64,000 nucleotides of DNA from Cyanophora paradoxa CCMP329 (taxonomy: Eukaryota > Plantae > Glaucophyta). The stretch is taken from contig QPMI01000430.1 of assembly GCA_004431415.1 (NCBI GenBank), positions 6,109-70,108 on the forward strand, in the 5' to 3' direction. The position numbers and the translations under genes were made by a program. Below are positions 1-53,662 of this stretch, one piece after another. The notes under the pieces were generated by a model. It was not told where the DNA came from. It ran no database searches and worked only from the letters and a program-made list of their open reading frames with translations. Numbering within the stretch: the first letter of the stretch is position 1; every line of letters starts with the position of its first letter.

Positions 1-1
1 A

Positions 2-28133: not shown

Positions 28134-28504
28134 GAGATCTAGACGGGTCCGACTCGTCCGAGTCACCGACGCACCGTGGTCCGTACGCGTGGTCCCGGAG
28201 TCCGTGGACCGTGACCGTGGCCCTGACTGTGACTGAATCAGTCAACCCGAGGTTCAGTCAGGCTACCGTGCAAAAGCCGGGGAAAATGACCAGGAAATGG
28301 CAGGAATTGACCCAAGCGCGATCTATCTACTTCATTCAAGTTGCCAAGCATCAGGCAAGGCACGTTATGCGAGCAGAGAGGACGAGAAAAGGAGATTCGG
28401 CCCCCGCCTAGCGCAAGTCAGACTCCATTAGCCTCTTTCCATGCACATGGGCGCGCGGTTTCTTGAAGATTTCGACGACAGAAGATCATTTTTTGGTCGA
28501 CCCA

Positions 28505-28589
28505 ACACATAAAGAAATACAAATTTAAATCCCTCCGCTTCGCGCTTCGCGCTTCGCTCCTGGATTTAAATTTGTATTTCTTTATGTGT
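28505..28589. other. Terminal 85-nt hairpin (28-bp perfect stem, loop with 3x GCTTCGC)
   Basis: 28505-28532 acacataaagaaatacaaatttaaatcc pairs with 28562-28589. Confidence 0.95.
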
Positions 28590-28778
28590 AAATTAATCGA
28601 AAATATTTAAAAAATAAATCAAAATGTTTAATAAAATCAATTAAATTTAAATAAATTCGATTAAATTAATTGGTATAATATCAATTAAATTATGATTTTA
28701 TGAAATTTATATAAATTTTTGATAAATTACGTATTTCTCAATTGATTCAATGATATAAACGCGATATAACACAGAGTT

Positions 28779-29190
28779 GCATTATGTCCAATTAAACAAT
28801 CGATGAGATTGCGGCATATTTTGTTGGAAGAGATGGTTACTGCATTATGTCCAATTAAACAATCGATGAAATATCGGATGAAAATAATTCACTCGTTACT
28901 GCATTATGTCCAATTAAACAATCGTTGAGATTGCGGCGTATTTTGTTGGAAGAGATGGTTACTGCATCAGGTCCAATTAAACAATCGATGAGATTCGGGT
29001 AAGCTTTTTACTGTATCGAAAATGACCCCAGAGTTGCATTATGTCCAATTAAACAATTGATAAGATTGGATTCTGTTTTTTACTGTAAAAACATTGTATC
29101 TTAGGTGTATCAATCTCAATTGAATTAATCGATGTAATTTTGTTGGAAGAGATGGTTACAGCATTATGTCCAATTAAACAATCGATGAGA
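28779..29190 (+). repeat. Array of ~30-bp direct repeats in the TIR (iteron-like)
   Basis: gcattatgtccaattaaacaatcgatgaga at 28779, 28842, 28901, 28964, 29036 and 29161, plus a degenerate copy near 29107; mirrored in the right TIR. Confidence 0.9.
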
Positions 29191-29491
29191 TTTCGCTGAG
29201 ATGAAAACGGTTAGGCACTTTTTTATCGTGATCGGCGGATATCATTTAGATATAAAACGGGCTACTGAAATGGAGCGGGTTAATCGAAGTAGGCACTTTT
29301 TTTAATCGCGGTAGGCAGCGTAGGCGCGTTAGGCACTTCCTTATCGAGAATTAAAAAGAAGTCCCAAATACATCAACTTGTGTTTTTCAAAACGTTGATT
29401 TTATTTTTTATAGAGAGTTTCCAGAAAAGGTGCCTAAGTGCCTAACGTCAATTAAAAGTGCCTAACTTCAATTAAAAGTGCCTAACTTCAA

Positions 29492-29896
29492 TTAAAAGAT
29501 CCCTGAAAAGATCTCTGTTATTCTCTCATCTATGTTAACCAACCCTGAAAAGATCTCTGTTATTCTCTCATCTATCAATTTAGATATTACGGAGGTCTTA
29601 CTTTGCGCTTCGGTTCCGCAAGTGAATACATCAATCGCTAACATTCCTTGATCAGAGTAGCAATGAGCGGTGCAATGGCTCTCATCGAGAAGTAATACCA
29701 TCGCAAAACCCGGTGGCGAAACACCACCATCGAAAATCTCGCAATGCTTGTGAACAACTCGGATACCTTGTTCTTGAATAATAGTTTGTAAAAATTGCAT
29801 TAACCATGTTGTTGTGGTTTCCAAGTTCTCCAATCCCACCATCAATGGATGATTGAACTTGTAATCTAACATTACATGGGAACCGCGATGATTCAT
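29492..29896 (-). CDS. speD: S-adenosylmethionine decarboxylase proenzyme (pyruvoyl-dependent, small bacterial/archaeal class)
   Basis: G.H..LD N-terminus, LLLDESH autocleavage site, and H.Y...G..AIDVFTCG motif. The C-terminus is rearranged. Confidence 0.88.
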   Translation of the reverse strand: MNHRGSHVMLDYKFNHPLMVGLENLETTTTWLMQFLQTIIQEQGIRVVHKHCEIFDGGVSPPGFAMVLLLDESHCTAHCYSDQGMLAIDVFTCGTEAQSKTSVISKLIDERITEIFSGLVNIDERITEIFSGIF

Positions 29897-29936
29897 TTAT
29901 GAATTATATAGAAAAATAAAAAACGAAATTGGTAGG

Positions 29937-30092
29937 ATGCGAACCATCTTAGCGAAAGTATTTCCGTTTGAGTTGGTCGATATCATAATGCTCCATTATC
30001 ATAAGACATGTCCGAATTGCTTCGATACTTGCATTATTACAAGAAACAAGACTGGTAAAGTCTTAATTTCTTTATCCCGTCTCCATATGTAA
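29937..30092 (+). CDS. Small hypothetical protein (51 aa)
   Basis: ATG..TAA ORF MRTILAKVFPFELVDIIMLHYHKTCPNC.. filling the speD-methyltransferase gap. Confidence 0.4.
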   Translation: MRTILAKVFPFELVDIIMLHYHKTCPNCFDTCIITRNKTGKVLISLSRLHM

Positions 30093-30116
30093 TTTGTTTT
30101 TCTTTATCTATGGTAA

Positions 30117-30932
30117 ATGAAGACTCACTTTTACCATAAGTATGTCGGTAATAAATACAATGAAATGGATACAATCAATCCTTTTATCGATTTAGAAGGC
30201 ATAAATAAAATAATAGAACCATTTTGTGGTTCAGGTGCATTTAGTTTCTATCTTTGGGAAAAGCATAAAGAACGTTTTGATTACTTTATGAATGATAACG
30301 ACGAAACACATATACTTTTTTTGAATACAATGAAAGACCCTAACAGTAAAGTAAAACTTTTAGATAGTCTTCAACAGTTCGAAGCAGTAAGCAATATAGA
30401 AGAGCATAAAGAAGTTTATAAGAGTTTTCTACAACATGATCGTAAAGATGTAATGGATTACTTAGCCCATCATTTCTATCTTCTTAAAAACAGCGTTTTA
30501 AATGTTAAAACCCTCCGTGATTTCAAAAAACGGAACGTGAAGTTGAGTGCATATACAACTCTTAAAAAGAAGATACCTTACGATGATTTCCTACAAGATG
30601 TTAACTTATCTCTTGGGGATTATCTGGATATTGTGTTGAAATACAAAGATGATGAGGATGCATTCATATTTCTTGATCCTCCATACGTTAATAGCAATAA
30701 TGACTTTTACGAAAATGTAGAATCCGATTTGGAAAAATTCTTTTTGGATTTAGAAGATCTATTGAAGACCGCGAAATGCAAAGTTATGATGGTTGTTAAT
30801 GATGCTTTATTAATGAAATTGCTATTTAAACCCTTTATTCGACATACATATGGTAAAGTGTATGGTATATCAAAAAAGAAAAGGAAACATCTCATTATGA
30901 CTAACTACGAAATCAATCAAAATACAACATAA
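30117..30932 (+). CDS. DNA N6-adenine methyltransferase (Dam/D12-like)
   Basis: Y.G.K start, EPFCGSG AdoMet-binding motif, and FLDPPY catalytic motif. Confidence 0.92.
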   Translation: MKTHFYHKYVGNKYNEMDTINPFIDLEGINKIIEPFCGSGAFSFYLWEKHKERFDYFMNDNDETHILFLNTMKDPNSKVKLLDSLQQFEAVSNIEEHKEVYKSFLQHDRKDVMDYLAHHFYLLKNSVLNVKTLRDFKKRNVKLSAYTTLKKKIPYDDFLQDVNLSLGDYLDIVLKYKDDEDAFIFLDPPYVNSNNDFYENVESDLEKFFLDLEDLLKTAKCKVMMVVNDALLMKLLFKPFIRHTYGKVYGISKKKRKHLIMTNYEINQNTT

Positions 30933-31185
30933 TTGGCTTCTCTTCTATTACTATTCCCCATGTAGTTTTTTTTCTGTATGCATGTGAGTGTTTCTTAGAA
31001 CACTGTCGGCAACCTGACCCCTTAATGTGATTAAATCCGTAGGTTTGGAACGTCTTATTACATTGTAAACATCTAACGGATACCTTCTCTTGTGCTTTCT
31101 TATAGACAGTCTCACTGTAATCGAATTTAGCATCACCATGAATCATAATCGCAGATTCAATAAATCTTTTAGTTTTTTCATCCAT
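30913..31185 (-). CDS. Zn-ribbon protein (endonuclease-associated DNA-binding repeat)
   Basis: FI..A..IHG..FDYS...Y.....KV...C..C...F....NH..G.GC..C motif common in large DNA virus/phage endonucleases. Confidence 0.65.
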   Translation of the reverse strand: MDEKTKRFIESAIMIHGDAKFDYSETVYKKAQEKVSVRCLQCNKTFQTYGFNHIKGSGCRQCSKKHSHAYRKKTTWGIVIEEKPIMLYFD

Positions 31186-31208
31186 TCCTCTATATATACC
31201 TTAGAAAT

Positions 31209-32039
31209 CTATGGTGCAGTATCTGACCCAAAAATGGGAAAATATCGGTTTGTGCCGTAATACTCCGCATATGTATTCTGTTTTGCGATAGCATCGGTTC
31301 TTTCAGCATAGAGAATGCATTTGTAGATACCAAACCTGGTAGCTCTGACTAAAAACTGGTAATCTTCTAATCCAAAATTCACACCATGATATGCAATACC
31401 GAAATTATCGTAAGGAGTGATAACCACCGCAATATTGGGCGTTCCGCCTTCCACTTGACAGACAGCATAAACATCTGGTGGGATATCGACAACCACCTTG
31501 TAGTGGTCACCAATCTCAACAAGAGAATCAACTACTGATGTCTGCTCATTCACAACAATTGGGAAGATCTTGATAATATATGGTGCATTCATACTGGGGA
31601 CATAGGTGCGAATTCTGGTGTTGGGATCAATGGGATTGGGTTGATCATTTACGAAAAGAGGCGCACCAACAGCTCCACCAATCCGAAGACCATCACCAAT
31701 ATATGCTCCCCCCGTTTTGCAGTTAATAGCTCCCGACCGAGATTCAAAAGAATAAGTAGAAAGAGGATCACCATAACTGTCTGGGTCTCCATAGTGGGCA
31801 GAAAAGTTTGCATTTGTGACAAGGAGTTTCGTTGTCTTAACTATACCATTATTTTTATCACACCTGAGTTCTTGCAATCTCAGTTTGTGGGTGGAACCAA
31901 ATGTATTCATTGTGGGTTGCACTTCTGTGGATTGGAGACCTTCTACATCATCAAAGGTAGCATGCTGCAAAACGTGATTCGCAGGTGCTGCTAATGAGAG
32001 TTGGGGTGTAATAATTCGTTCTGGTATTGGGGCAGCCAT
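31209..32039 (-). CDS. Putative virion fibre/adaptor protein, paralogue B
   Basis: LRLQELRCDKNNGIVKTTKLLVTNANF N-terminal domain shared with 32607-33461 and 3333-4328. Confidence 0.6.
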   Translation of the reverse strand: MAAPIPERIITPQLSLAAPANHVLQHATFDDVEGLQSTEVQPTMNTFGSTHKLRLQELRCDKNNGIVKTTKLLVTNANFSAHYGDPDSYGDPLSTYSFESRSGAINCKTGGAYIGDGLRIGGAVGAPLFVNDQPNPIDPNTRIRTYVPSMNAPYIIKIFPIVVNEQTSVVDSLVEIGDHYKVVVDIPPDVYAVCQVEGGTPNIAVVITPYDNFGIAYHGVNFGLEDYQFLVRATRFGIYKCILYAERTDAIAKQNTYAEYYGTNRYFPIFGSDTAP

Positions 32040-32062
32040 TTTACATTAAAGTGATATATAAT

Positions 32063-32557
32063 TTATGGGGTTGGGTTATCAATCACATTCAAATATGCAA
32101 ACTCTCCTTTAATTTCGATTGCCCGGGCATTGTATGCTCTTGCAGCGTCTTCTTCTTTTTCAAAGTAGCCAATTATAATTTGTTTATAGTTGTGTCTGAT
32201 TTTTGCAAGCCATTTCTTCATTCCTTTACTCCAAGAGACACCTTTGTATTTACTGGTGGATTCTTTTGTAGTTTTGGGTTTGTTCATCTGATTCTGTGCA
32301 TGTGTGCATCTCCGAAGATTGGTTTTTCTATTGTCCAACTTGTCGTGATTGATATGATCAATCTGAATCTTAGGGTCAATTTCAGACATTGCATATCTGT
32401 GCGCCCTGGTGAGTGTTTGACCAATTCTGCAATTTACATAACCTCTCGTATCAATTGACCAAGTATACCTCTCAAACCGTTCTTTATCTTCATAATCAAT
32501 TTTCATAAACTTCCCATGACCTTTTTTTCCTGAGAGAGCGATTAAAGCATAATCCAT
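32063..32557 (-). CDS. HNH endonuclease with C-terminal AP2 domain (free-standing homing endonuclease)
   Basis: IDHINHDKLDNRKTNLR HNH motif and SKYKGV..W.A.I......GYF..EEDAARAYN AP2 motif. Confidence 0.92.
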   Translation of the reverse strand: MDYALIALSGKKGHGKFMKIDYEDKERFERYTWSIDTRGYVNCRIGQTLTRAHRYAMSEIDPKIQIDHINHDKLDNRKTNLRRCTHAQNQMNKPKTTKESTSKYKGVSWSKGMKKWLAKIRHNYKQIIIGYFEKEEDAARAYNARAIEIKGEFAYLNVIDNPTP

Positions 32558-32606
32558 GATGGTGAATTCTTATACGTTTTACCAAGCTATTTTTTATATC
32601 ATTTTT

Positions 32607-33461
32607 TTATGGGGTGGGGTCATCGATTATATCTGGTTCCGAATAAAACCCTGTTGTGAAGATATCTGCAACGTTTACCCCTCGAAGTGCCGAAACAGCT
32701 GCTATATCTGTCCTCAGTCCCATAATCATAGTATTGTAAACTCCAACCTCAGTTACAAACAAATCATAGGTAAATGTCAAATTGTTATAAACACAATATC
32801 CTCGACCGAAATGGTTTGATGCTTGAACAAAGAATAGGTAATTATGACCTGTTTGATTGTTGTTTGCTCTGCACATAGATAGCATTGCTGTGGGAAGCGG
32901 AATATTTCTTCTTACTCGATCAGTTCCTGTTATAATAACCAATTCCGAATTTTCAAGAGTGACAGAGGAAGCAACATAGAAATGTAGAAAAGGTTGCTGT
33001 GCAACTGGTGTATAGAAACGTATTCGTTGGGGATTCTCTACATTTTGTTCAAGAGTATCTGGGACATCATTATACGAAATTGAGGATGAAAGTTGACCTG
33101 AAATTCGACAGCCACCCCCAATAAATGCTCCTCCTGATCTCACAGTAACAGCAGCAGAATTCTTATCGAAATCAAGGGCTTTCAGATCAACACTGTAAGC
33201 ATCAGGACCTCCATTGGTAGGCTGGAAAAAGTTAGCATTTGTGACAAGAAGTCGAGTTGTTTTAACCACACCAGAATTCTTATCAGCTCTCAGCTCTTTA
33301 ACTCGAATAATCGAATTTTTATCAAAGGAGTTCCCATTGGAGTTGGGTCTCTCTGTGGATTCTAAACCACGAACCTCATCATTTACTTCATGCTGGCGAA
33401 AGTGCATAGCAGGGGATCCAAGGGAATATATTGGAAGTTGAACTCGATTATATTCACCCAT
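32607..33461 (-). CDS. Putative virion fibre/adaptor protein, paralogue A
   Basis: RVKELRADKNSGVVKTTRLLVTNANF; similar along its length to 31209-32039. Likely start at ATG 33461. Confidence 0.6.
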   Translation of the reverse strand: MGEYNRVQLPIYSLGSPAMHFRQHEVNDEVRGLESTERPNSNGNSFDKNSIIRVKELRADKNSGVVKTTRLLVTNANFFQPTNGGPDAYSVDLKALDFDKNSAAVTVRSGGAFIGGGCRISGQLSSSISYNDVPDTLEQNVENPQRIRFYTPVAQQPFLHFYVASSVTLENSELVIITGTDRVRRNIPLPTAMLSMCRANNNQTGHNYLFFVQASNHFGRGYCVYNNLTFTYDLFVTEVGVYNTMIMGLRTDIAAVSALRGVNVADIFTTGFYSEPDIIDDPTP

Positions 33462-33500
33462 TGCTTCTTTTACTAAGAAGGAAAGAAAAATAAACACCAT

Positions 33501-33809
33501 TCAAGCCAAAGCAATTAGATTGGATCCAAGAGATTGGTAAGCGGTTGTTAGACATTGGATGTTGGATGTCATCGCTTTGAGGTTAGAATCACATTCACCA
33601 TATTTTGTTACTGGGTCACCATAAGCCGATTGCGCGAGGACATTAACCAAGAGGTTTTTATATTCATGAACAACTGGGGACAGTTTGTTAGTTTGCTGAA
33701 TTGTTTTTTCGACGTTTTGTAGCGCGGCTACAAGTTTAATAGTATCGAATGCAAGAGCGACAGGCTCAGTAGTAGTGGAAGGAGATCCACCAAGTGGATA
33801 GGTCGCCAT
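33501..33809 (-). CDS. Hypothetical helical protein (102 aa)
   Basis: ATG-start ORF packed between fibre genes. Confidence 0.55.
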   Translation of the reverse strand: MATYPLGGSPSTTTEPVALAFDTIKLVAALQNVEKTIQQTNKLSPVVHEYKNLLVNVLAQSAYGDPVTKYGECDSNLKAMTSNIQCLTTAYQSLGSNLIALA

Positions 33810-33812
33810 TTA

Positions 33813-36800
33813 CTATACTGTGACATTTTTAATTTGGTCTATTTGACTTTGGAGATTTTCACATGTTTGTGTTAAATCTTTGCATTTCTTAGATAACTCT
33901 TTAACGGCTTCTATGAGAACTGGAATTAAACCCGTGTATTCGAGAGAAAGGTAACCATCTTCTTTTGTGACACTTACAATTTCTGGTATTACCTTTTCTA
34001 CATCTTGCGCAATTAAACCTAATTTTGTTCCGTCTTTTTCACTCCCAATTCGTTTAAAACTCACTCCTTCTAATTTTTCGATTGCTGAAAGAGCGCCGGT
34101 TATCTTTTTAATATCTGTTTTGTATCTTCTGTCACTTCCTTGTGTTAAATAATTGTTTATCCACATCCGCCCGTCATGATCGATCCAACAAATATCAGAA
34201 TCTAATTCATTTCGAAATCTTATTGGATAAGTTCCTCTTCCTTTCAAATATGTAGAACCATTGTTACCGAAATGAATTCGATTATATCCATCACTGGAAT
34301 TAAACCAAGTCTCCACAGCTCCTGTTAAGATATTTGGTTTACTATAAACATTATTCCAATGAATATAGCCGGTGTGACCACCATAGCTATGCCCAACCCA
34401 TATTTTCATATAACTTATACCCATAATATGAACTCTTCCTATCTTTGGTCTAATCCGAATAGTGAGGAATCGATTACCAAGATGTATTGGAACATTATTT
34501 ATACCACTGTGGTTACCATCAGGCGATGTGGCGTATGGTTGATAACTATTCACTGATGTAATAAAAACTTCATTCCCTTGTCTATTAACTCCCCAAATTT
34601 CAAAAAGTCGTGAGTTAGTCCAAGGTAAATAGGTTAAAAATGCTGTTCCTGTGTGGTATCCATCGGGTATATCGAAGTCAATCCAAGCGGTAGAAGTTTG
34701 GTCATCAGATTGATTATTATGGACATATGAACCATAATTATAATGTGGATCCCATGCTGAACTCCACGCCCATGTCCAACCCTCAGAACATCTATTAAAT
34801 GCAATGCCTCCTACTGTTTTATCTGCTGTGTGAAACTTTGGGACATCATTACCGTTTATTTGGAGTTTGGTAGTAGCATTAATAGTAGGTGCTGTAATAG
34901 TATTATTCACCCAAAAGTTACCATTGTTATAAGATTTTAAAATGGCTGTATCTGCTGAGTTTCTGAATTCAATTGACACAGCATCACCATTTGGTCTCCC
35001 TCGTATATATGTGCAATCGCCATTACCAAACCAAATTCGCTCGACTGCATCTACTGATTTTAACCATGTATTTGTTGGCCATGTTGCGGTTTGTGGAAGG
35101 TCTGCGGCTGAGTAAAATGATGGTTTACTAAATACATTATCCCAAGAGATCATGCCCAATTCATTATCTGTTGCTCTCTGTCTACTCCAACCGAAAACAC
35201 CCGTTAGATGAATGCGACCTTTTCGACCTTGAACATAAATATATTTGTAAAACTCACAATTGATTGAGGCAAACAAAATACAATTGTGTGTTCCATCTTG
35301 ATTAACTTCCTGAATTACTTGATAAGCATTTACACGCTTTAAGAAATGTTGATATCCATTAACAGTTTGCCCGTAGATATCGAAATATCTACAATTACCC
35401 CAAGGCATGTGCTGAATATAAAACGATTTCATACCTGTCGGAACAACCCACCTCATCCAACATCCGCTACAATCATCATCATTTTGTGGTGTTGTATAAC
35501 ATCCTGTTTGTCCGGTTCTTGGTGTCCATCCTGTAACAGTCCAATTATTTGCGCTTCTATCTGATGAAACCACATCTAATTGGTCGAAATCGTAACCTTT
35601 TGGTATTGTGGTTCCGCCAATTTGTAAAGTGGTAGCATTCACAGTTCCTGTTACAGTTCCACCTGTTAGAGGTAGATAATTAGCAAGTGCCGCCGTTAAA
35701 TCGGTATCTGTAACAAAATCTGTAACAGCTAACTGTAATTCTGTATTTGTAACATAATCTTTGTTTTCTAAGTAATCATCTGTAACAACACCGGAAAGGG
35801 TTGTATTGTGTAAGTTTTTCGCCGCCATTCTCTGATTGACTTCTAAGGCGCCACCTGATAACGTTTTTATCCACGCCATCTCACATTTTCCGTGATCATC
35901 TGTGGGTTGTCCCACAACAGGAAGGTAGTTTACAACTTTCTCCCTTGTGAAAACTATCTTAGGTCTTGCTCCATCATATGCGCTTTGATCTGTTACATTT
36001 ACTTGTATCGCTGCTGAAAAATCCGCTACTTGTCCTGTTTCACCCGGGTGATAATTCGTGACATAGATACTGGGGAAAGTATCATTAATTCCTACATTAA
36101 AATCGCCACTATACACTCCATTTACGATTGGATCCCTGGGTAATCTTACTGCAAGAGTTCCCACCATCGGTGTGCCGTCTTGACCTGTAAATGAACCATT
36201 GAGACTAACATAATGATCATTCAAAAATAGCCTTTCAGGTGTATTACTCGATTGGTAAAGTGTGACTCCATTAAAAACGTTTCCGATTGCATTCAATTGG
36301 GCAAAAACTGGCTGTTCGTCTATTTCGTCCCAATTGTGCCTATGTGCAAAATCTGTGATTTGCGCTTTTGTGTGAGTATGGTCAAAATCTGTGATTTGCG
36401 CTTTTGTGTGAGTATGGTCAAAATCTGTGATTTGCGCTTTTGTGTGAGTATGGTCAAAATCTGTGATTTGCGCTTTTGTGTGAGTATGGTCAAAATCTGT
36501 GATTTGCGCTTTTGTGTGAGTATGGTCAAAATCTGTGATTTGCGCTTTTGTGTGAGTATGGTCAAAATCTGTTATTTGCGCTTTTGTGTGAGTATGGGCA
36601 AAATCTGTGATCTGATCTTTGGTGTGTGTGTGGTTTTGTATCCAACCTTGAACCACATTAGAGGTTGGATGATGAGGTAAATTTGCATTGCTTATAACTG
36701 TAAGGTAATCTATTACAGTATCAGGTGAGGTTATTTTTAATCCTCTGTAAATATTCAGAGTCTGGGTATGAGTGAATCCATATTTTTGTTGAATGTAATA

Positions 36801-39703
36801 CCTCACAGCATTCTTTTCAGAAGTTGTCAAAGCCCTATTGAAAACAATCAACTCGGAAATACCACCATTCACAATATTACCAAATCCGAAATGATTGACA
36901 GTATTATCTGGTAGATAATTCGTTCCTACAAGTGTTTGAATATCTACTCCATTTAACCCGACTGTGTAGCTGTTTGGAGTAATTGTTTGGTCAGTGTAAT
37001 ACCATGTATTTATTAAAGAAGGAACCGTAATAACTGGGCGGGTTTGGGATACTCCATTAATAGTAAACTGGTTCATTCCAATAGCAGTAGAAGATGTTGC
37101 CCCATAATAACAATATCGTGATGGAGAGGCGCTTCTGTAAAGTCTCAAATGAACTTGCATAGAAGAGGTAGTTGGATGATATTTTCCCACAAAGAAAAAT
37201 GTAAGCCCATTTGAGAAATCAATAGTCCTTGTAGCAGAGGTATATGCATAAAAAGTGCCTGTTGGGTTTGAAACACTAACTTGGTTGTTGATTTCGGGAT
37301 TGGTGTAATAGGAACTGACTCCGGAGATAAACAAGTCTGGAACAACTGAATTTGGGACTCTACTTATTATAGTTGTATACGTTGCTGATTGACCTGGTTC
37401 TCCTGATGCCTTCCAAGCAAAAATGCAGTTCGAGATATTTAATGCTGGATCAAAGCTTGCTGGAACATCATACCATTCTCTGTAAACTTGATTCATGGTA
37501 TTAAAATTGCCTGAACCAACTGTAAGAATTCCATTCACTTTTAGGTTGCTGGTCTCTATGTTGCTACTGTAAATATTACTATTAACCGTAAGATCTCCTG
37601 TGATCGTCCACCAACAAGCGGAAGATATTTAGATAATTCCGCGGCAAATTCAGGTTTTGTTACATAATTTCCAAGCATAGCAAGAGTAACGAAATTAACG
37701 AGAATTACAGCCGTTAGGTAATCTTCTGTTACCACTCTCGAAATATCTTCATTGTGTATATTTTTTGCAGCCATTCTTTGATTGGCTTCGAGAACCCCAC
37801 CATAATCTGTTTTAATCCATGCAAGCTCTGCCCTTCCATAATTATCATTTGCAGTTCCCACTATGGGAATGTAGGAATACTTATCTCTGCTGAATACTAT
37901 CATTGGTCTTGAACCATCTAAGCTGCTTACATCTGCTACATGAACCTGTATAGCAGAGTTGTAATTTTGGTAGGTTGCTGGGTCTGTTGGGACTCTGAAT
38001 GTATCTGTGGGAATGTCAGCCTCCATGTAGCTTGACACAAAGATATTTGGTATGGTTGCTCCTGGTTCAGGTGGTGGATTATAAGAGCCTGGTAATGTCC
38101 TAATATGAAGTGGTCCTCTCATAGCTGAATTCGCAAGTGTCCCATTCACATGAACATAGTGTTCATTCAAAAAGATCCTTTCAGGGACATTGCAAGTCTG
38201 GTAAAGAGAAACTCCCAGAGTAGCAAGAGGCTCTACTTTTGCGAATTCTGGTTGGTCATTGATCTCATCCCAGGTGTGTTCATGGTTGCTTGCTGCAAAC
38301 TTATCTGGTATCCCATCCAGATCACCCCAATCATGCCTGTGATCCTCTGGTGGGAATTTCTCTGGTTTACCTAAGATCTCATCCCAGTCATGGTTGTGAT
38401 CCTCTGGTGGAAATCTTGCTGGTTTGTTATTGATCTGCTCCCAATCTGGGAAGAACTCCCAAATCTCTGGGCGAAATCCATCTGGTAATAATTCTTCATG
38501 GGGTTCATATGGTTGCTCATAATCAACAACTGGTGGTTCGAGACCATCTGCTAAATATTCCTCATGGGGTTCATAATTCTGCTCATATTCATACTCTTGT
38601 GGATCTAAACCATCTGGTAAATACTCTTCCTCATTGGGATCATATTGATCATATTCATACTCTTGTGGGTCGAAACCATCAGGTAGGTATTCCTCCTCAT
38701 CTGGAACGAATTGGTATTCGTCAAGCTCCAAAATATCAATTTCAGGAGGTAAATATTGCTCATCAATTTGCTTTCTTGGTTCAATTATAGGTTTATTTCG
38801 AACTTGCTCCCAACTCACAATGTGTTGACCAAAAGGAACTGTCTCATCTGCTGTGTATTCTCTTCCGGGTTGTTTTTTTGGTGTAAGATCTGGTGGATCC
38901 CATGGTAACGGAAATGGAACTGGAACAGGTCCGTAATGTTCAAATATTTCTCTTATCGTTTTCTCACTAACAAGTTTCTCGCCATTTGCATACACGTTGC
39001 TACCGTGAATATTTCGCCACTGTCGGGTTCTAATACCAAGATCTTTTGTGTTTGAAAACAAAGGTAGTAAATGTCGATCCATTTCGACAAGATCGGGATG
39101 TAGATGAATCGCTACTGGTTGAGTGGGACTACTATTAATGGTTATTGATGGTTTTTGTTGGTGAACGTCTTTCGGAGTAAAAAACCCAAAAGGTTCATTT
39201 TTCGCAAAATCATAAGTAATGTCTTTTGGGTATACATTATTTGTGATACATACTTGATTCGCATTAGGAAAACTACCTACTTGTAAGATTTGTGATGACT
39301 CGACGATTGGTGTGCTACCTTCATTATAAATTCTTAGACCTGTATTCTGTTTACCTTTCTCATCTTGAACATTAAACACTAATCGCCCACTATCGAAACG
39401 CGTCGGAATATCGGGATGGGTTTTACTTGTTTTAAGTTTCCGTTGTCTTCTTGTTGCTTTAATTTCGGCAACTTCGTTTTTTTTAACGTCTCCCAAACTG
39501 AAAGCAATACTTACATCTTCTCTGTTTGGGTCTGTTTGATTCAGCGATAAAGCATGCTCTCTGGATTGCGTCTTACTGGGTTTATCTGCGCTCTGATCAA
39601 TAGAAGCCGACCCTTTGATGGTGATATTATCGAAATTCACATGTTTCGGGTTTGTTTTACCACCACTTATTGTTTGTAAATTTGCTGGATAATTGAAACT
39701 CAT
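33813..39703 (-). CDS. Giant fibre protein (~1960 aa) with C-terminal peptidase S74 intramolecular chaperone; split by a 1-nt frameshift at ~37607
   Basis: Restoring one base gives YLPLVGG-TITGDLTVN.., matching the internal repeat YLPLTGGTVTG. Also has HxH fibre repeats, a LamG-like domain (ISELIVFNRALT), and SDRRYKTDI..GLIAQDVEKVIPEIV..LIEAVKEL. Confidence 0.82.
36340..36635 (-). repeat. 36-bp coding tandem repeat (HTHTKAQITDFD, ~8 copies)
   Basis: aaaatctgtgatttgcgcttttgtgtgagtatggtc repeated almost perfectly. Confidence 0.95.
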
Positions 39704-39752
39704 CCCTGCATGCTCTACATATAGAGATTTATTAAATTTCGATAAAGTAAAG

Positions 39753-41309
39753 ATGCCTCAAAAGATCGTTTTAGCGTTGTCTGGTGGAGGTGCGCGTGGT
39801 ATCATCATAACAAGGTTACTAACAGAAATTGAAAATAGAACTGGTAGACGTATAATAAATCTTGTCGATCTTGTAAGCGGAACATCCACAGGTGGTATAA
39901 TTGCTATTGGGTTAAACATCAGACATCCTGAGATGCCCTATGAACCGAAACTAACCGCTAACGATTTGCATAATATATATCTAACACAACTACCGTTAAT
40001 TTTTGCGAATCCGCGAAATATCATTGAAAATGCCCTTTTCAATACAAAATACGATGCTACACCACTGGAAAGTGCGATTTATTCAGTAACTGGTGAATCA
40101 CTCATAAGAGATTCTCTAAAAGACATTGTGATTACATCTTTTGATACTCAATATATGAAACCAATATTTATAACAAACGATAACAAATACAATTTTTTGC
40201 CGAATAAAATAGTAGCGCGTGCTACATCTGCTGCTCCAACATACTTTTCACCTGTTAGCATTGTAGATTTCAATAATGGCGTAATTGCTTCTCTGATTGA
40301 TGGCGCAATTTCAGGAAACAATAACCCAAGTGTATGCGGTTATAGTCATGCAAAAAAGATTTATAATGAAGATGATGAAATTATAGTTATAAGTATATCT
40401 TGTGGTGAGGTTGATGCAAATTTAGAATCTGAATATTTCGGATATGCTTATGAGACTGTGAATAGCTGGGGTATTCTTTCATGGATTGCTTCAACAGAAG
40501 GAAGCCCATTAATTAATATGCTAATGGCTGCAAGCGAACTATCCGCTCTTGATAAAATGGAAGAATTACTACCTCCAAATCTTGACCAAGGATATAATAG
40601 ATATTTCCGTCTTTCTGTTCCGCTTCCAAATGATATAGTTCGATCACTTGATGATACATCTAAGATACCTGAAATGCTCGCATTCACTGAAACGTATATT
40701 GCTGCAAATGACGCTATGATAAATAGACTCTGTGATTTACTTGTAACAAATTATGAGATTAATAACCCTGTCAGATCGTATATATCTTCCACTCTTAATA
40801 ACATACCTCCCATTGACGCTAATTGGTATCTTCTGTCAGATAATGCGTTTTCTGCTTCGTCTGCGAAATTCGGAAAAGAGGCATTTAAAGCCCGCCCATC
40901 ATTAACAGGATGGGAAGCGAACGCATCCGCCATAAACGGAGTATGGGAAACGCCAACTGAATATTTGCAAATTGCTTTTCCATATACATATGAAATCGCT
41001 TCTATAATTGCTTATGGTTCAGGTATAACAACTGCGTTTATTAAAACTTTCAATGTTGCGACATCGCAAGATGGTTTAACATGGTCCTTCATCAAATCTG
41101 ATGGTGTAAATAGAATCTTTGTATGTGAAAATATAAATAATGCTAATAACTCTGGGGATGTATCATATAACGGGGGCTTTCCGCTTGCAATAAACGATGT
41201 TTTCTATATAGGTTTCCCACTGAGAACAAGATATATACGAATATATCCGTTGGTATATATAAATGCTCCGACCATGAGAGTCGATGTGACGGGCGCATTT
41301 ATACGGTAG
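39753..41309 (+). CDS. Patatin-like phospholipase fused to a discoidin (F5/8 type C) domain
   Basis: LSGGGARG oxyanion motif, GTSTG nucleophile, ATSAAPTYF and DGA. C-terminal EYLQI..F.V..SQDG..W..TRYIRIYP..MRVD. Confidence 0.9.
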   Translation: MPQKIVLALSGGGARGIIITRLLTEIENRTGRRIINLVDLVSGTSTGGIIAIGLNIRHPEMPYEPKLTANDLHNIYLTQLPLIFANPRNIIENALFNTKYDATPLESAIYSVTGESLIRDSLKDIVITSFDTQYMKPIFITNDNKYNFLPNKIVARATSAAPTYFSPVSIVDFNNGVIASLIDGAISGNNNPSVCGYSHAKKIYNEDDEIIVISISCGEVDANLESEYFGYAYETVNSWGILSWIASTEGSPLINMLMAASELSALDKMEELLPPNLDQGYNRYFRLSVPLPNDIVRSLDDTSKIPEMLAFTETYIAANDAMINRLCDLLVTNYEINNPVRSYISSTLNNIPPIDANWYLLSDNAFSASSAKFGKEAFKARPSLTGWEANASAINGVWETPTEYLQIAFPYTYEIASIIAYGSGITTAFIKTFNVATSQDGLTWSFIKSDGVNRIFVCENINNANNSGDVSYNGGFPLAINDVFYIGFPLRTRYIRIYPLVYINAPTMRVDVTGAFIR

Positions 41310-41505
41310 AAAAAAGAGGGAATTTTTTCCGATTTTTTGATTATATATATGTATATGTATATATAATAATATTATTTAATATTATTTATTATTTTTCCAA
41401 ACATTTTTTTCTTGGTCAACCGGCAATACGGAGGTTTCGGTATATATAGTATATATATTTCGTGACGTCACGTGTATATATACGGTATATATGTCGGAGG
41501 TTTAG

Positions 41506-41692
41506 AGGGGGGAATGAGTATCGTTATTAAAGGGGGGGAATGAGTATCGTTATTAAGGGGGGAATGAGTATCGTTATGGGGGGAATGAGTATCGTTATTG
41601 GGGGGAATGAGTATCGTTATTATCGTTATTATCGTTATCATCGTTATTATCGTTATCTTATCGTTATCATCGTTCTTATCGTTATCTTATCT
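41506..41692 (+). repeat. Intergenic tandem array ggggaatgagtatcgttat (5 copies) decaying into (atcgtt-att/atc)n
   Basis: Directly visible between the convergent patatin and integrase genes. Confidence 0.9.
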
Positions 41693-41827
41693 TTTTCATC
41701 GAAATTCCGGGAAAGTTCGCGAAATTCCAAGAAAATCATACAAACTGCTGTAACTCTTCACCAACTCATCAACTATTAAAACCGCGACCATCACCGGAAT
41801 CCTCTTTGCATCCTCTACACATCTATG

Positions 41828-43228
41828 CTACTTTCGCGAACCGGATCTTAGATTTACCCGGGTTTGAGGTGCTGAATATGTCTCTTTTGAGGTCTGGAAG
41901 TCTGTATACCATCTCTGACTGTTGACTTCTGATAGTTTCTGGGTTCCTGCTATGGTTAACTTCTTTAATTCACGCTCCGCCTTCGCTTTCTTCTTTGTTC
42001 TGGCTTGTGTTAACGGTTCTTCTGGGACGTCATCCGCTTTTTCGATGCCTTCCTTACGAATCGCCGAATCGACCCGGGCTTCTTCTTTCGCTTGTTCAAG
42101 TGCATCCACTGTGGGCGCTTCGTGATACTCAACACCTTTGATAGGTAACAGTTCGTGGAAAGCGAATCTCCCTTCGACCATTTCGCCGTTCGGATTTCGC
42201 AACCTGAACTTGAAACCCTCTCTCCCTTCGACAGTATAGACGATTCGCGACCAATTGACACCTTGTTTAGCGAATGGGTTCTTTTCTATTCTCACTCTCA
42301 CAAACATACCCTGTTTCACACCATCTAAGTAAGCCATTGACTTCTTGAACCTCTCATCTTCTAATCCGATAATCTCACGGTAATGATCTTCCGTCGTTTC
42401 TGCTGGTTTTCTCTTGGTTGCTGAGTGGATGGTATTATTATAGTTATACTCAATGTCTCCCAATACATCGAAGAATCGCGCTGTGTTGTTTGCTATGCAA
42501 TAGTTCGTGATCAATCGTTTGATCTGCTTGTTAAACGCTTCGATTCTACCTTGGCTTCGATGATCTGCGACATCGCTTATCTGATGGTCTATGAACTTCT
42601 TAGCAAGGTAATTCGTGAACATGTTATTTGTGAACTCGCTTCCGCTGTCACTCTGAACGCGTGCGATAGGTCGAGGAACTCTTCGTTGTAGCTGTTCAAA
42701 CGCCGCAAGCGCCGTAAGAGCGCTCTTATCTCTCATCGGAATGATGTAACCCGTGCGTAAGGTAGATTCCATCGCGGACATGAACGTATCGTATCCGTCG
42801 TTTTGGTTCTTGTATGCTGGGAAGAAGAGCAGATCGATTACGTAGGTATCGAGAGGTTGCCGAATCGGAATCATCGGATCTCTCTTTCTTGAAAGGGTCG
42901 GTGCGTTTATCTGAACGACTTCCTGTTTATCATACCATTCTCTCATCTTCTTGTAGTCTTCCTCTGGTAGTTCCTTTCTCATTGCCCCGAAACCTTTGTA
43001 ACCTGTGCGCGGATCGTAAAACTTCTTCGCGATCTTCGATTCTTTCGTTGCAGTCTCAGTAGGTAATGCCTCCGGGATCAGTTCTTTAACCATCTCAGAC
43101 TTCTTCAAGATTCGCGTGTTCTTCTCTTCGACCGGAATAGTGATCGGTAGCATGTTCCCTTGGTCTTCTTTCATGCTCTTCTTTACAATTTTAGGGACTG
43201 GTCGCAATCCTATCTGTGCTGAGGGCAT
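41828..43228 (-). CDS. Retroviral-type (rve, DDE) integrase
   Basis: YVIDL, VQSDSGSEF and GRIEAFNKQIK catalytic D-D-E, plus YNNTIHSAT. Intact ORF, consistent with the 6-bp TSD. Confidence 0.93.
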   Translation of the reverse strand: MPSAQIGLRPVPKIVKKSMKEDQGNMLPITIPVEEKNTRILKKSEMVKELIPEALPTETATKESKIAKKFYDPRTGYKGFGAMRKELPEEDYKKMREWYDKQEVVQINAPTLSRKRDPMIPIRQPLDTYVIDLLFFPAYKNQNDGYDTFMSAMESTLRTGYIIPMRDKSALTALAAFEQLQRRVPRPIARVQSDSGSEFTNNMFTNYLAKKFIDHQISDVADHRSQGRIEAFNKQIKRLITNYCIANNTARFFDVLGDIEYNYNNTIHSATKRKPAETTEDHYREIIGLEDERFKKSMAYLDGVKQGMFVRVRIEKNPFAKQGVNWSRIVYTVEGREGFKFRLRNPNGEMVEGRFAFHELLPIKGVEYHEAPTVDALEQAKEEARVDSAIRKEGIEKADDVPEEPLTQARTKKKAKAERELKKLTIAGTQKLSEVNSQRWYTDFQTSKETYSAPQTRVNLRSGSRK

Positions 43229-43413
43229 CTTTACTTTATTTTCAATATATTAATAATGGACGAGCCGGTTTGGACAGAACACCCAAAACCAAACTACTTT
43301 GCGATCGATCCAAACGACCCCGGTTTAAGGTGCATATGGTTGCTGCATCTGATCCGTGGTTTACTGCTACTTGGAGATCGAAAAAATAAAAAGAGAAGTA
43401 TTGAGCAAGTATA

Positions 43414-46400
43414 TTAAAGACCAAATGGAATGCTGTGAATGCCGTCGGCTGATATCTTCCGTTTGCTATCGAGTTGGTTTAGAGCGACCCTTCTGCTCTC
43501 CAAGTCATATAAGTTGTGGTCTTGCCTTCGCTTGTTTGTTACTGATACTGTTTTTATGATGCCTTCGAACAGACATCTCTTAAAATCATCAAAATGAACC
43601 TCTTTCGAGGAAGTCCCCGACATCTTTACTCTTTCGTTGGTCTCAGTTCTGAAAGCATAGAGTTTCGATCTCAGACCCACATACTCCATGATCTTTGCAT
43701 TTGGGAACTCATTTTTATATTTACCTGGAACCATGCGGTTTTTGATACTCACGAGAGGATGGGATTTATCGTAATTGCTCCTATCGAGATACTCACCTAT
43801 CTCTTTCATATCTTCGTTCAGATTATTGGTTTTCAGGAAAAGACAGAACGAATCGGTATCGTGGAACAGTAATTTAGCGGTTTCCCACTTCCTCCTTACC
43901 ACATCGTAGAAGAACCGATAATTATGCAGCTTCGCGAAATCCAAAACGAAAGCGCCAATTGCTACGGGTTTATCTAAGTTAACATGCTTCGAATACATCT
44001 CAAAGGCAACTGCGTTTTCGTTTAATACATTGGTCGCCTTGATAAGCGGACTTGCTGCGTATTTCTTACAGAGTTTCTCACTGTTAGCGATCTTGACAGT
44101 TGAGCGACCCCTGCAAGATTCCAAACATTTACCGTAAATTGCATTGTTCATGAGTTTAAAGAAGTCGCTTTCGAAATGGTTAGTAGATTCATGCCTGAGA
44201 AGAGTATTCAGACCAATGTAAGACTTCATGAATGGGGAAGTAGCGAAAGAGAGAACCTTATTTATTTTCTTGATTTCAACACCCTTCTTAACGATGTAAT
44301 TAAGAAGAGGTCGAGCAATCACGTATTTATTCTTGGGTGTAAATGTCGCTGTAAGTTTGGGGTCTTTGCTGATCTTTTCGCCCGTCAGATCTAATAGTTT
44401 CTGTTGATAATCACCAAGCATCTCATTGGTGATCACTTCTTTATTCACAATCAGTGGGAAATCATAATGTTCTTCAAGCGATGTGGGGTATTCAAGGTCA
44501 ACTTCAATAAATGCGCTTCGACCCTCTACCTCTTTAAGTGCCTCTGTGACATCTTCCCATCGATAATCTCCGATAGGTAGTGGTTGGCTGAGAGCATACC
44601 CATAAAGATTATTTGCATCCAACAGAACTATATGATCGTCAGCATTCTCTACCTTTGCGTATCGTGTGGGCATGGTAGCAAATCCACCTCTAATGGCTCT
44701 CTCAACAAATTCGTATTTCTCTACATCATCGATAAGTTCAATCTTAACTTTCGTATGTTTGAGCATAGCGTCCCAAGAGAGACCTGGTGCGCTAACATAA
44801 TGTGCGGGATCCAATCCATATTGAGAAAACGCCAATTTGCGGAATGCTTCAAACTTTCTCATTAAATCGCCCACATCCACAGATTGGAAATCCATGAAAT
44901 GGGAAGCATCAATGAACTTCCACATGCCCATTGAAGCGATAGGTATTGATCGAAATTCTTGCTCAGAATCTCAACACGAAGTTTATCGTCTTGCTGTGCA
45001 ATCTTGCGGAATATTCCGTGTCCGCATTCATCCATGTGATCCACCACGATAGCTACTTTGGTTTGCTTCGAAATTCGCCGGTGGAGGTTACAGTTTCGGC
45101 ATGCCTTTCCGATGAAATCGCCGGATTGGTGGCAATGATCTCGAACCGGGAAGTTTTCGTGGGTGAATCTCTGAGAGCAAATGTAACAGTGTTTTGTTAC
45201 CTTGTATTCCGCCTTCTGATCATCTGTGAGTGGATGCATCGGAATATTTCTAAATAGCGTCTCAACGATTTCGGGTCTGATATCTTGGAGAGTTACAAAG
45301 AGAGAACCGAGCGGATCGATTCCCTCGAAATGGTATGCTCTCACTTCGTCTCCCATTACCACTCGCAATGAAACCGCTTTAATCTCACGTTTACTCCTCT
45401 GAGCATCAATAGCGACCGAATGATCTTCGACTTTAACGTAACAGATCACAGGGAGCCACACAGTTTTACGCAAGTGTTGCAGACCGAATTCAATTACGCT
45501 TCCCGCTTTTGGGCATTTGCCTTTGCTCTCCCTCCAATCAATGCAGCGATTCGCTTCAACATGCATGTCTAATTTCTCCTGAGTTCTGAAACGCGACAAG
45601 CAGGTTTCACAGTAGTAAATGCGACCATCACATGCTTTATCAAACGTAGTTTTCAGAAGACGACTAAAAGACATGATAGTAATGTAGTGTCCCCGATCAT
45701 CTTCGGTGTTTTCGATAAGTAAAAGATTAATCTTGGTCTTTCTTCTTGGGTTACTTGATTGATGGAGAGGATAGAAACACTCTTTGGCGTTATCGGCTCC
45801 GTAAATGTTAATAGAGAGTTCGGGGTTCAGTTCTTCGAATCGATCGATTACCTCAGCATCACAGGCAACGGGAAACTGAATACCATCGAAATTGAGTTCA
45901 TTTAACCATCGGCGGTATTGGCTCGGTTCGTTACTCTTGTGTTTATTGATGTCCTTTCGATGCAGGTAAGCCAAAATCGCATACTTGAAGCAATCTTGCC
46001 CGTCGATATTCTTAACATTCACCGTCGCTTTCTTGGATGCGATCCATTCGGGAGTTGCGAAATAGCATCCTCCCACAGGTGCATAAGACATGATAATGCC
46101 TCTAAGTATTTCGATCTTCTCTAAACGGTAACTATCCACTTGCGTCATCTCCTCTTGCATTTTCTGTAACGCTTTGCGAACTTCTGTGTCTATGTTGCGG
46201 GATCGGGTAATTACGAAATAATCGCTGTAAATGAATTTGGTGATATAGATGCGCGGATTACCTACTTTGGTGAATTTGCAAACGAAAGTAAGACGGACTT
46301 TAACCGCTCTCAGTTGATCTAAGCGGGTTCTAATGCGTTGCGGTAGACTTGGTGCGATTCTTTCGAGGAATTCGATAGCATCCACGACAACTTCATTTCG

Positions 46401-46694
46401 GGCGCGATAGGTCAACCACGAATACGCTTGATTCATTGCTTGACCATCTTCAATGTCCGGGTCAATTGCTCCTAATCTCTGTCCTTCATCCATGAACTCC
46501 TCCATCCTCTGCATGCGATTGTAGAGGTCATTTGCAATCTCAGTGAGTTGTCCTAATCGCGGTCGTCTATCTAAGATGGCGGCTTCTCTATCGTATTCCG
46601 CTTCGGTGATCTCACCTGTAACTAAGAGAGTTCCTAACAATCCAAGTATTTCATTTTTCTTTTCTTTGATCAGTCTGTTCGTTTGGCGGGGCAT
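43414..46694 (-). CDS. polB: Protein-primed family B DNA polymerase, split by a 1-nt frameshift at ~44930
   Basis: Motifs DANNLYG, KLMNNAIYGK, HDTDS and GLRSKLYA. Polinton-type N-terminal N..DCFKYAI..GHY region and C..C..VRDHCH.SG..G.AC..CN Zn insert. Confidence 0.93.
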
Positions 46695-46715
46695 CTTTGC
46701 TATAAAGGAACATTT

Positions 46716-47024
46716 TTATTTTAGAGTTTGAACGCGTTTTGAAAGTTTATCTTGAAGTCGCTTTCGTGCATGGTTCACATCATGGCGACCCTGTCCCGCT
46801 CTCATTTCCTCGAAATCATTTGCGCACTGGTGGCCTCTTCCATTTTCGCAGTATCTATCTAATTTCTTTCTGAAATGCCTGGGCATCTGATCATATTTAC
46901 ATCCTCCTTTCTCCAAGATCAACCGAAGCACTTTTTTTCTTTGCTCTGCATCTGTCAGAACTGGATCAGATCCAAAGCATTCATGATTGAGTCGGGCGAA
47001 ATCTTCTTTTGAGAATGTGGTCAT
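46716..47024 (-). CDS. Hypothetical protein (102 aa)
   Basis: ATG ORF upstream of polB, preceded by an AAAAAATGAC motif. Confidence 0.55.
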   Translation of the reverse strand: MTTFSKEDFARLNHECFGSDPVLTDAEQRKKVLRLILEKGGCKYDQMPRHFRKKLDRYCENGRGHQCANDFEEMRAGQGRHDVNHARKRLQDKLSKRVQTLK

Positions 47025-47067
47025 TGTGGTGCTCTTGGATCACATCTCTGAAATCGCGTCATTTTTT

Positions 47068-47265
47068 GTAGGCGCTTGTAGGCAGTTAGGCACTTCTTAA
47101 TCGAGAATTAAAAAGAAGTCCCAAATATATCAACTTGTGTTTTTCAAAACGTTGATTTTATTTTTTATAGAGAGTTTCCAGAAAAGGTGCCTAAGTGCCT
47201 AACGTCAATTAAAAGTGCCTAACCTCAATTGAAAAGTGCCTACTTCAATTATTCAAGTGCCTACT
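47068..47265 (+). repeat. Internal third copy of the inner TIR segment (TAGGCAC/GTGCCTA motif block)
   Basis: Near-identical to ~29310-29490 (atcgagaattaaaaagaagtcccaaata...gtgcctaagtgcctaacgtcaattaaaagtgcctaac). Confidence 0.92.
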
Positions 47266-47328
47266 GTCCATTTCCAGTAAGGTATAAAAAAGAATGTATA
47301 TAGAAATCAGAATCATAACAGAAGTATT

Positions 47329-49718: not shown

Positions 49719-49917
49719 CTTGGGCTCTTCTTATACTTAATGGAGAAAAGAGTTTCTCCGGATTCCTGTCATTTTTTGGCGGCTAACCTTTAAGTGCTTG
49801 ATATCTCCTCAATTACCAAAAACGGCAATCGGGAGATGGTTACGGATCTATCGAAGAATATCGATAGACCGCTCGAAAAATGAGTAATTGGGTTCAGCGG
49901 TCAAATGGGTGTTTTCC

Positions 49918-50154
49918 TTAATACTTTCGTGGACGTCCCCGCGACTTGTTTTCGATTCCCTCCCGCTCCTTACGACGATAATATGAAGCGAGCGATTGCG
50001 CCTTCTTATACTCCCGATAAACCGGGTCTTCGTTGTAAAGCGTTCGCTTCCTGAGAGCATCTCTCATCTTGTAATTGGCGCGGGTCTCCTCTTCTTCTTC
50101 GCCGAATTCGACAACGCTAATCATGTCTTCGGTTATATGAATTACAGTCGCCAT
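49918..50154 (-). CDS. Small basic DNA-binding protein with C-terminal AT-hook
   Basis: Ends in RGRPRKY. Confidence 0.6.
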   Translation of the reverse strand: MATVIHITEDMISVVEFGEEEEETRANYKMRDALRKRTLYNEDPVYREYKKAQSLASYYRRKEREGIENKSRGRPRKY

Positions 50155-50362
50155 GTTCCCCTTTATATGTAGTTGAGAAAATGTTTTACCACTCTGTATT
50201 ATGCGTTACGTCTTTAAGTAGTTTATGGTGTCATTTTTTGGTGACCAAAGCCAGTTGGTGTCTACGTTCTTCAATTGCAGATTTAACGGCGTAAATCTGT
50301 CGTTTCGATAGTATGATGGCGTAGATCTTTTCGTATGACATTTGATACCATAACCAAAGATA

Positions 50363-51339: not shown

Positions 51340-51367
51340 TGTATATTTATAACATACAGAGATAATT

Positions 51368-52150: not shown

Positions 52151-52210
52151 GGCGTTGTAGATCTTCTTAATAAAGATAGATAAAAATAACGAAATGTGAC
52201 TGATAATGGT

Positions 52211-53608: not shown

Positions 53609-53662
53609 TCTGTTTTGCTTTTACTATACAAAAATATAAAAATTCTGTGAATGATCCTTAAT

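Follow-up and report, generated by a model that had tools for sequence, protein, structure and literature searches.

The Element and Its Insertion Site

The window (the whole stretch of 64,000 nucleotides analysed here, from Cyanophora paradoxa CCMP329) contains an endogenous Polinton-like virus (PLV), recognized by its terminal inverted repeats (TIRs), its target-site duplication (TSD) and its gene content (Table 1). The host region around the virus is mostly GC-richer than the virus itself. The insertion target is a tandem host repeat of roughly 500 bp (27900-28504 and 57673-58400); both host flanks are copies of this repeat, and an empty paralogous site is found at 58156-58175. The TIRs, which are about 1.0-1.15 kb long, hold an array of ~60-nt repeats (28770-29200 and 56820-57250; about six units, with ATCGAT in the core) that differs strongly between the copies found in contigs from public sequencing runs. 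An internal copy of the inner TIR segment (29311-29494) is located between the pPolB-integrase module and the PolA-helicase-like gene, and the inner-TIR copies thus bracket 47068-56690, i.e., the PolA-helicase-like gene together with the capsid module, as inverted repeats. This region may represent the older element, or else the site where one replicase was swapped for another, and an internal TIR copy of this kind has been reported for replicase turnover in the accessible part of a preprint (bioRxiv 10.64898/2026.10.13.758929).

Upstream of the virus, positions 1-5520 correspond to a fragment of a second AT-rich PLV-like element, which has a protein family in common with 32607-33500 (tblastx E 2e-14); no comparable terminal palindrome was found at its apparent edge near 5520. 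A GC-rich host segment with a P-type ATPase-like coding sequence is present in three copies (8800-12200, 19500-23400 and 60000-63900). At the left TIR lies an S-adenosylmethionine decarboxylase-like gene (29492-29896), the 3' end of which is duplicated and is also copied, in inverted orientation, near the right TIR (56300-56365). The virus further contains a patatin-like phospholipase joined to an F5/8 type C domain (39753-41309) and two long fibre-like genes (33813-39703). One of them combines an array of 12-aa repeats (36263-36694) with an endosialidase chaperone domain at its C-terminus, and the other shares a block with the first and may be frame-broken at its end.

Table 1. Features of the endogenous virus and of its ends (window coordinates).
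Feature	Position	Strand	Remarks
Endogenous Polinton-like virus	28505..57672		29,168 bp; GC about 0.36-0.45
TSD GACCCA, left copy	28499..28504	+	6 bp
Left TIR	28505..29497	+	265 nt at 99.6% and 729 nt at 100% to right TIR; internal ~60-nt repeat array
Left terminal palindrome	28505..28589	-	outer arm 28505-28532, loop 28533-28561, inner arm 28562-28589; purine-rich loop on minus (3'-terminal) strand
Three tandem GCGAAGC, left end	28537..28557	-	
rve/DDE integrase	41828..43228	-	unbroken ORF, 466 aa; Pfam rve E 2e-4; IS481-type DDE E 5e-14, below cut-off
pPolB, C-terminal part	43414..44931	-	palm motifs intact; one frame break parts it from N-terminal part
pPolB, N-terminal part	44862..46694	-	terminal-protein-like domain (about aa 88-208), vOTU with C235/H336, zinc finger, degenerate exonuclease with endonuclease-VII-like insert
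Internal copy of inner TIR segment	47068..47251	+	94%
Presumed PolA-like (TVpol-type) polymerase fused to D5/SF3 helicase	47329..49718	-	in pieces: four frame changes and one in-frame double stop
A32-like packaging ATPase	51368..52150	-	Pfam Pox_A32 E 3.5e-12
Major capsid protein, predicted double jelly-roll	52211..53608	-	closest folds NCLDV-type; model pLDDT 67.9
Two divergent ORFs, candidate minor capsid proteins	53663..55598		334 aa (minus), 300 aa (plus)
Right TIR	56518..57672	-	162 extra nt at about 57247-57408
Right terminal palindrome	57588..57672	+	inner arm 57588-57615, loop 57616-57644, outer arm 57645-57672; tip is dinucleotide repeat TGTGT-3'
Three tandem GCGAAGC, right end	57620..57640	+	central GCGC-GAA-GCGC at 57625-57635
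TSD GACCCA, right copy	57673..57678	+	6 bp

Capsid Genes and Class Assignment

The major capsid protein (MCP) is predicted to be a double jelly-roll protein of the non-virophage type. Indeed, a model built from 7 sequences matches the MCPs of PBCV-1 and iridoviruses (PBCV-1 capsid, E 2e-19, TM 0.6). Its family is scarce, with 6 representatives among 1.84 billion proteins and one homologue at 57% in EukProt, and a search of viral and metagenome contigs returned no DNA locus. Judging from this homologue and from the GC-rich host genes, the host would be a eukaryote and probably a unicellular one. The two divergent ORFs, which are candidate minor capsid proteins by their N-terminal pattern, are weakly alike (E 0.02) and had no match in family searches, Pfam included. 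Likewise, no maturation protease was found by Pfam among 24 of the 33 listed ORFs, 10 of these 24 being fragments or without any match.

PLVs have been defined by a double jelly-roll MCP of this type, a packaging ATPase, a minor capsid protein, the lack of a maturation protease and a size of 15-40 kb with TIRs (PMC4642659). That no protease was found hence fits a PLV, and the 29.2-kb size and the TIRs lie within the PLV range. The element also displays traits of Polintons/Mavericks and adenoviruses, namely TIRs, a 6-bp TSD, an rve integrase, a TP-vOTU-pPolB and a dinucleotide tip (PMC11071308, accessible text). It differs from Polintons/Mavericks in that its pPolB is devoid of exonuclease motifs; the maturation cysteine protease, present in nearly all members, was not found here.

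Two Replicases

The virus has both replicase types named in the original prediction, namely a terminal-protein pPolB and a PolA-helicase-like gene, each of them with breaks. Compared with 7 full-length relatives, pPolB keeps the Cys and His of the vOTU and the palm motifs, and it is without the Exo I and Exo II aspartates and ~100 residues holding Exo III, a deletion shared by none of the 7. In the accessible sections of PMC11071308, a similar TP-vOTU layout is described, and the loss of the proofreading domain has a parallel in mavirus. The structural model of the pPolB N-terminus resembles the little-finger domain of the Y family (Z 9.2, rmsd 2.9, 108 aligned) and an OTU (Z 7.4, rmsd 3.1, 105 aligned). 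Foldseek gave no match under E 0.001 for the N-terminal model (the best being Y-family polymerases at 3e-3), and word-based searches and phmmer against the PDB gave none for this part of the protein. The endonuclease-VII-like insert has a weak Endonuclease_7 match (E 0.006; PHROG E 7e-5). Eight relatives of pPolB were identified at 30-36%, and neither a TIR nor a terminal palindrome was found at the ~6 contig ends that they reach, these contigs being partial and uninformative on this point.

Regarding the PolA-helicase-like gene, the assignment of which to a PolA polymerase and an SF3 helicase is our assumption from motifs, searches returned a weak D5_N match (E 0.006) and unnamed viral clusters at 0.96-0.97, and for the PolA-like piece no DNA locus and no phage match. 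Five of the 6 counted breaks fall in this gene, which represents 15% of the counted coding length (p 3.5e-4), in a count that omits a 715-aa ORF which may hold another break. Since the assembly has at least one base that is missing from all contigs (56292), assembly errors are possible among the counted breaks. As the TIRs are near-identical, decay may have affected this gene and spared the ends, and the internal TIR copy suggests that the pPolB module may be a later acquisition.

Terminal Palindromes and Their Purine-Rich Loop

At both ends, a palindrome sits within the TIR, directly adjoined by the GACCCA duplication, and forms the tip of the terminal repeats of the virus. The ends of Polintons/Mavericks and adenoviruses are not described as self-complementary. 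The stretches 28505-28589 and 57588-57672 are exact reverse complements of one another. As stated in the original prediction, each consists of two perfectly paired 28-bp arms, terminal base included, which enclose a 29-nt loop. On the 3'-terminal strand this loop reads AGGA-(GCGAAGC)x3-GGAG at both ends, the middle A of the right triple (57630) being the exact centre of the 85-mer. The palindrome is not due to chance, because none of 200 dinucleotide shuffles folded as well as the ends (z -12.3 and -11.6), arms reached at most 15 when the last 300 nt were shuffled 200 times, as against the 28 seen, and 4 matches to the doubled heptamer occur in the window for 0.00 expected. Taken alone, the 21-nt repeat has an ordinary Watson-Crick folding energy (z 0.34). 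Moreover, short-read contigs tile the 85-mer without any difference in both runs placed on the tip (X13, perhaps the source sample, and X4, from another study code), so that the palindrome is not an assembly fold-back artefact. The terminal palindromes are real.

Across the centre of the loop, 14/14 positions can pair, 6 by Watson-Crick and 8 by purine-purine pairs (six G-A, one A-A and one G-G), and a GAA loop closes this pairing. Symmetry is built into the central 21 nt; it is not built into the four flanking pairs (AGGA/GGAG), yet these are also purine-purine. On the opposite strand these purine-purine positions become pyrimidine mismatches and only the 3' strand can pair in this way; the GNA mini-hairpin sequence is on this strand, as had been predicted. 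For the three-armed top that had been proposed, nearest-neighbour calculations give a fold that is less stable than the unbranched one by 8.3 (2004 set) or 12.7 (1999 set) kcal/mol, but they underrate mini-hairpins: a lone GCGAAGC is scored at +1.2 kcal/mol despite a measured Tm of 76.5 C (PMC13037366, accessible part). As every loop position can pair in one of the two ways, an unbranched rod is no less plausible than three arms, and mini-hairpins may take over once the stem opens. According to the same portion of PMC13037366, GAA mini-hairpins sit at primase signals and bind SSB poorly.

Sister Ends and the Covariation of Their Arms

The host carries many copies of the element, 20 public run entries holding over half of its words. 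We used contigs from 4 of the 20 entries for the TIR comparison and from 2 of the 20 for the tip comparison. On 57545-57700, 37 contig records were placed; 16 were read as pieces and all 11 loose ends were read. This tip list is incomplete, with one further X13 contig known; it reflects integrated copies and comes from contigs, which lose rare variants. Besides the window type, at least 4 other end types occur among these contigs. In sister type 1, two loose ends, one from either side of the loop, match as exact reverse complements across 18 nt and probably belong to one molecule; the arm has the same length as in the window, 28 nt, and differs from it at 7/18 positions. Type 2 has 4 differences in each arm (positions partly shown) and type 4 has differences inside the inner arm only. 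Type 3 (a 128-nt contig, X4) has a purine-rich loop of roughly 50 nt in which GCGA recurs and a single complete GCGAAGC is retained, inside a central GCGC-GAA-GCGC; one change in its outer arm may be unmirrored.

The arms hence co-vary between sister ends, as expected of the predicted stem, and, the changes being mirrored, it is the pairing of the arms and not their sequence that is kept. The central GNA hairpin is kept across sister ends as well. The three tandem units are not, one sister end retaining the central one only, which removes the three mini-hairpins as a conserved unit.

These data bear on the possibility that the palindrome works double-stranded in integration or excision, either as a dyad site for the integrase or as a cruciform at which the endonuclease-VII-like domain would cut the provirus free. 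Its position next to the TSD, the link between palindromes and particular RVE integrases in the accessible text of a preprint on Halocafeteria seosinensis (bioRxiv 10.64898/2026.07.28.741278) and the weak Endonuclease_7 match inside pPolB all point in this direction. However, arm changes as numerous as those of sister type 1 are unlike a protein-binding site, the insert matches over ~40 aa only and is found in pPolB relatives too, and the strand-specific purine loop is left unexplained. We therefore consider such a function improbable.

Loop Polarity

Polarity was read as the strand that carries the purine loop, which is the 3' strand at both window ends. AAV-type resolution and closed poxvirus-type ends yield flip and flop forms. 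In X13, 3/3 other host junctions run on from the outer arm (two shown as pieces begin at 57643), and inner junctions enter the purine loop with no branching, both in X13 (57356-57617) and in X17 (57338-57635); a common flipped form would break such contigs, which run from the TIR through the inner arm into the loop. The inner junctions of three variant ends also have the purine loop on the 3' strand. The inner-arm depth of X13 (1267.7) is fully explained by three records of window polarity, and a depth fit for this run with six inferred record groups (free parameters) closes within 0.2, with no room for a flipped host junction on the inner arm; from a group of depth ~2800 on the outer arm, it would seem that there are many more ends, with other loops. 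For X4, where a break in the inner contig falls at the arm-loop border, at most about 9% could be flipped (depth 120 of ~1290). This tally leaves out the sister variant with 4 changes per arm. As the two polarities do not differ in their outer 28 bp, a filtering of polarities by integration would be unlikely.

The loop inversion expected from the original prediction was thus absent from the readable contig records of integrated copies. The ends do resemble parvovirus hairpins (AAV ITR, MVM), with a fold-back bearing a paired 3'-OH and a structured top, and the overall fold-back geometry together with the GC-rich structured loop would suit AAV-type or poxvirus-type ends, the model closest to that prediction, in which hairpin priming is followed by a terminal resolution inverting the loop at each round. 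Unlike parvoviruses, we deal here with an integrating dsDNA virus for which no Rep/NS1 was found, no flip/flop was seen and a T-shaped top is not established. With no flipped end in the readable X13 and X17 records, the ceiling given above for X4 and no Rep family match among 24 ORFs, AAV-type behaviour is largely refuted for integrated copies, and we give this model hardly any credence.

Fixed polarity is also expected from self-priming with asymmetric resolution, as at the left end of autonomous parvoviruses, where this type of resolution keeps polarity. Here, the folded 3' end would prime its own copying (rolling hairpin) and the junction would be nicked by the integrase, the HNH-AP2 protein or the endonuclease-VII-like domain, candidate nucleases that were recognized with Pfam. 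The claim that a fold-back with a paired 3'-OH could form holds at the level of the sequence, the terminal base being paired and the template running on inward, and mirrored arms are also what this mechanism predicts. The presence of a PolA-helicase-like gene, bracketed with the capsid module by the inner-TIR copies, is in line with the link between palindromes and non-pPolB replicases (bioRxiv 10.64898/2026.07.28.741278, accessible text). Nevertheless, Pfam detected no HUH/Rep protein and no telomere resolvase among 24 ORFs, the PolA-helicase-like gene, with most of the counted breaks, may have decayed while the ends remained intact, and a TP-bearing pPolB needs no DNA primer. Self-priming with asymmetric resolution thus appears rather unlikely, while deserving serious attention.

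A Proposed Template-Side Fold-Back Cap

The reading we prefer, to which we would give slightly less than an even chance, is that the end folds back on the template side, where it would act both as a cap and as an initiation signal and would undergo fold-back repair, much as the telomeres of Streptomyces do. It is favoured by the fixed polarity, the mirrored arms, the strand-specific stable loop, the dinucleotide tip and the terminal-protein polymerase, a short dinucleotide repeat at the tip being typical of protein-primed origins. When displaced or unreplicated, and hence single-stranded during replication, the 3'-terminal strand would fold into the 28-bp stem, the purine-purine pairs and the GCGC-GAA-GCGC cap. 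This fold would shield the end from nucleases and provide a short duplex origin marking the start for the terminal-protein polymerase or for a primase-type polymerase. With a protein or de novo primer, the copying of each strand would run from one end to the other, and the loop would therefore never be inverted. Trimmed or damaged ends would be rebuilt when the folded 3' end is extended over a short distance along the inner arm, in which case both arms would change together. Folding in vivo, the nature of the initiating enzyme and fold-back repair are all inferred here. Of the roles considered in the original prediction, end protection, which it had named as an alternative, fits best.

Several points argue against this cap. 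The Halocafeteria palindromes occur mainly in non-pPolB elements, which favours a hairpin replacing protein priming; pPolB is without exonuclease motifs, so that trimming would need another nuclease; and the pPolB gene has one frame break.

Streptomyces telomeres combine GNA-loop palindromes on the 3' overhang with protein priming and fold-back repair, according to the accessible portions of PMC5449611 and PMC4513846, the latter of which also mentions parvovirus terminal hairpins. In the same sources, GNA loops are closed by sheared G-A pairs, protein priming takes place on a folded template and no inversion is expected. The ends described here have in common with them, at the sequence level, a GNA-loop palindrome on the 3' strand and a terminal base paired inward. 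Telomeres of this type also bear a covalently attached protein at their 5' ends, and the virus encodes a TP-like domain. Streptomyces differs by several palindromes spread over ~180 nt, by Tap/Tpg, by the lack of a family B polymerase and by an internal origin, and the likeness would be one of analogy, with no homology. One may go further and propose a Streptomyces-style telomere in a eukaryotic virus lineage, in which a sheared-purine 3' fold-back with a GNA cap would protect the end, allow its self-repair and serve as template for a TP polymerase devoid of proofreading; long-loop palindromes would then be missed by current screens and might be widespread in PLVs. We advance this broader proposal as possible, with more doubt than confidence.

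Relation to Other Palindromic Ends

In July 2026, a preprint reported terminal palindromes beside the TSD in endogenous virophages of H. seosinensis (subtypes 1, 2, 5 and 6) as well as in subtype 4 of the PLVs, and proposed hairpin priming by analogy with parvoviruses and poxviruses (model D) (bioRxiv 10.64898/2026.07.28.741278, accessible text). The arrangement and the priming model put forward in the original prediction are hence not new. As in the Halocafeteria elements, the palindrome lies here inside the TIR next to the TSD of an element with an RVE integrase. That screen asked for arms of 20 bp or more and a loop of at most 10 nt, whereas the present ends, with 28-bp arms and a 29-nt loop, fall outside this setting. 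Also in contrast to the bias of the Halocafeteria palindromes, a TP-bearing pPolB is present, and the loop is purine-rich and structured, longer than 29 nt in one variant and fixed in polarity. In the accessible main text of that preprint, the words loop, flip, orientation and GCGAA do not occur.

GCGAAGC-type motifs are also known from the phage G4 origin, RSF1010 ssiA and the N4 promoter, where they lie on the strand that is single-stranded in replication; these signals differ in being internal, in prokaryotic replicons, and not at genome ends (PMC13037366, accessible part). In the literature searched, most subscription papers being outside it, we found no paper on GNA loops or polarity at PLV ends. 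PMC12220804, PMC10120064 and 10.1101/2025.10.09.676808 have no mention of hairpins or palindromes, and those in PMC11296320 are irrelevant. Palindromic ends are thus already known, and polarity and loop chemistry are the new and testable part.

Terminal palindromes have been read as primers, by analogy with parvoviruses. The present family, represented by numerous sister copies within a single cultured host, offers the first handle on polarity that we found. Moreover, mirrored arms, the lack of inversion and a loop chemistry restricted to one strand make the choice between a primer and a template-side cap directly testable.

The GCGAAGC Triple Outside the Element

Outside the family, the triple heptamer was found in at least 129 unrelated stretches (8 viral and at least 121 metagenome). 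Among the matches listed, 1/129 lies in a stem of 20 bp or more, and it is GC-rich, unlike the window end. The triple was therefore rejected as a family marker, being common elsewhere and almost never inside a long stem.

Its frequency agrees with the ends being a by-product, that is, accidental fold-back repair of broken ends, passively copied, with a loop that is only a short tandem repeat; such accidental repair is an alternative offered in the accessible text of bioRxiv 10.64898/2026.07.28.741278. It accounts for the mirrored arms, any triple of a near-palindromic heptamer is symmetric by construction, and loop length varies. However, diverged variants keep arm length and polarity, the central GCGC-GAA-GCGC is kept in a rearranged, longer loop, the flanking AGGA/GGAG also pair purine to purine, and the other triples are, as noted, hardly ever found in a long stem. 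A by-product is, in our view, more improbable still than a function in integration.

In viral contigs L002, L004, L006, L008, L001 and L005, arrays of GCGAAGC mixed with GCGTAGC occupy AT-rich intergenic DNA. They reach up to 15-18 copies and vary only at the N of the GNA loop, which suggests selection for GNA mini-hairpins in other viruses.
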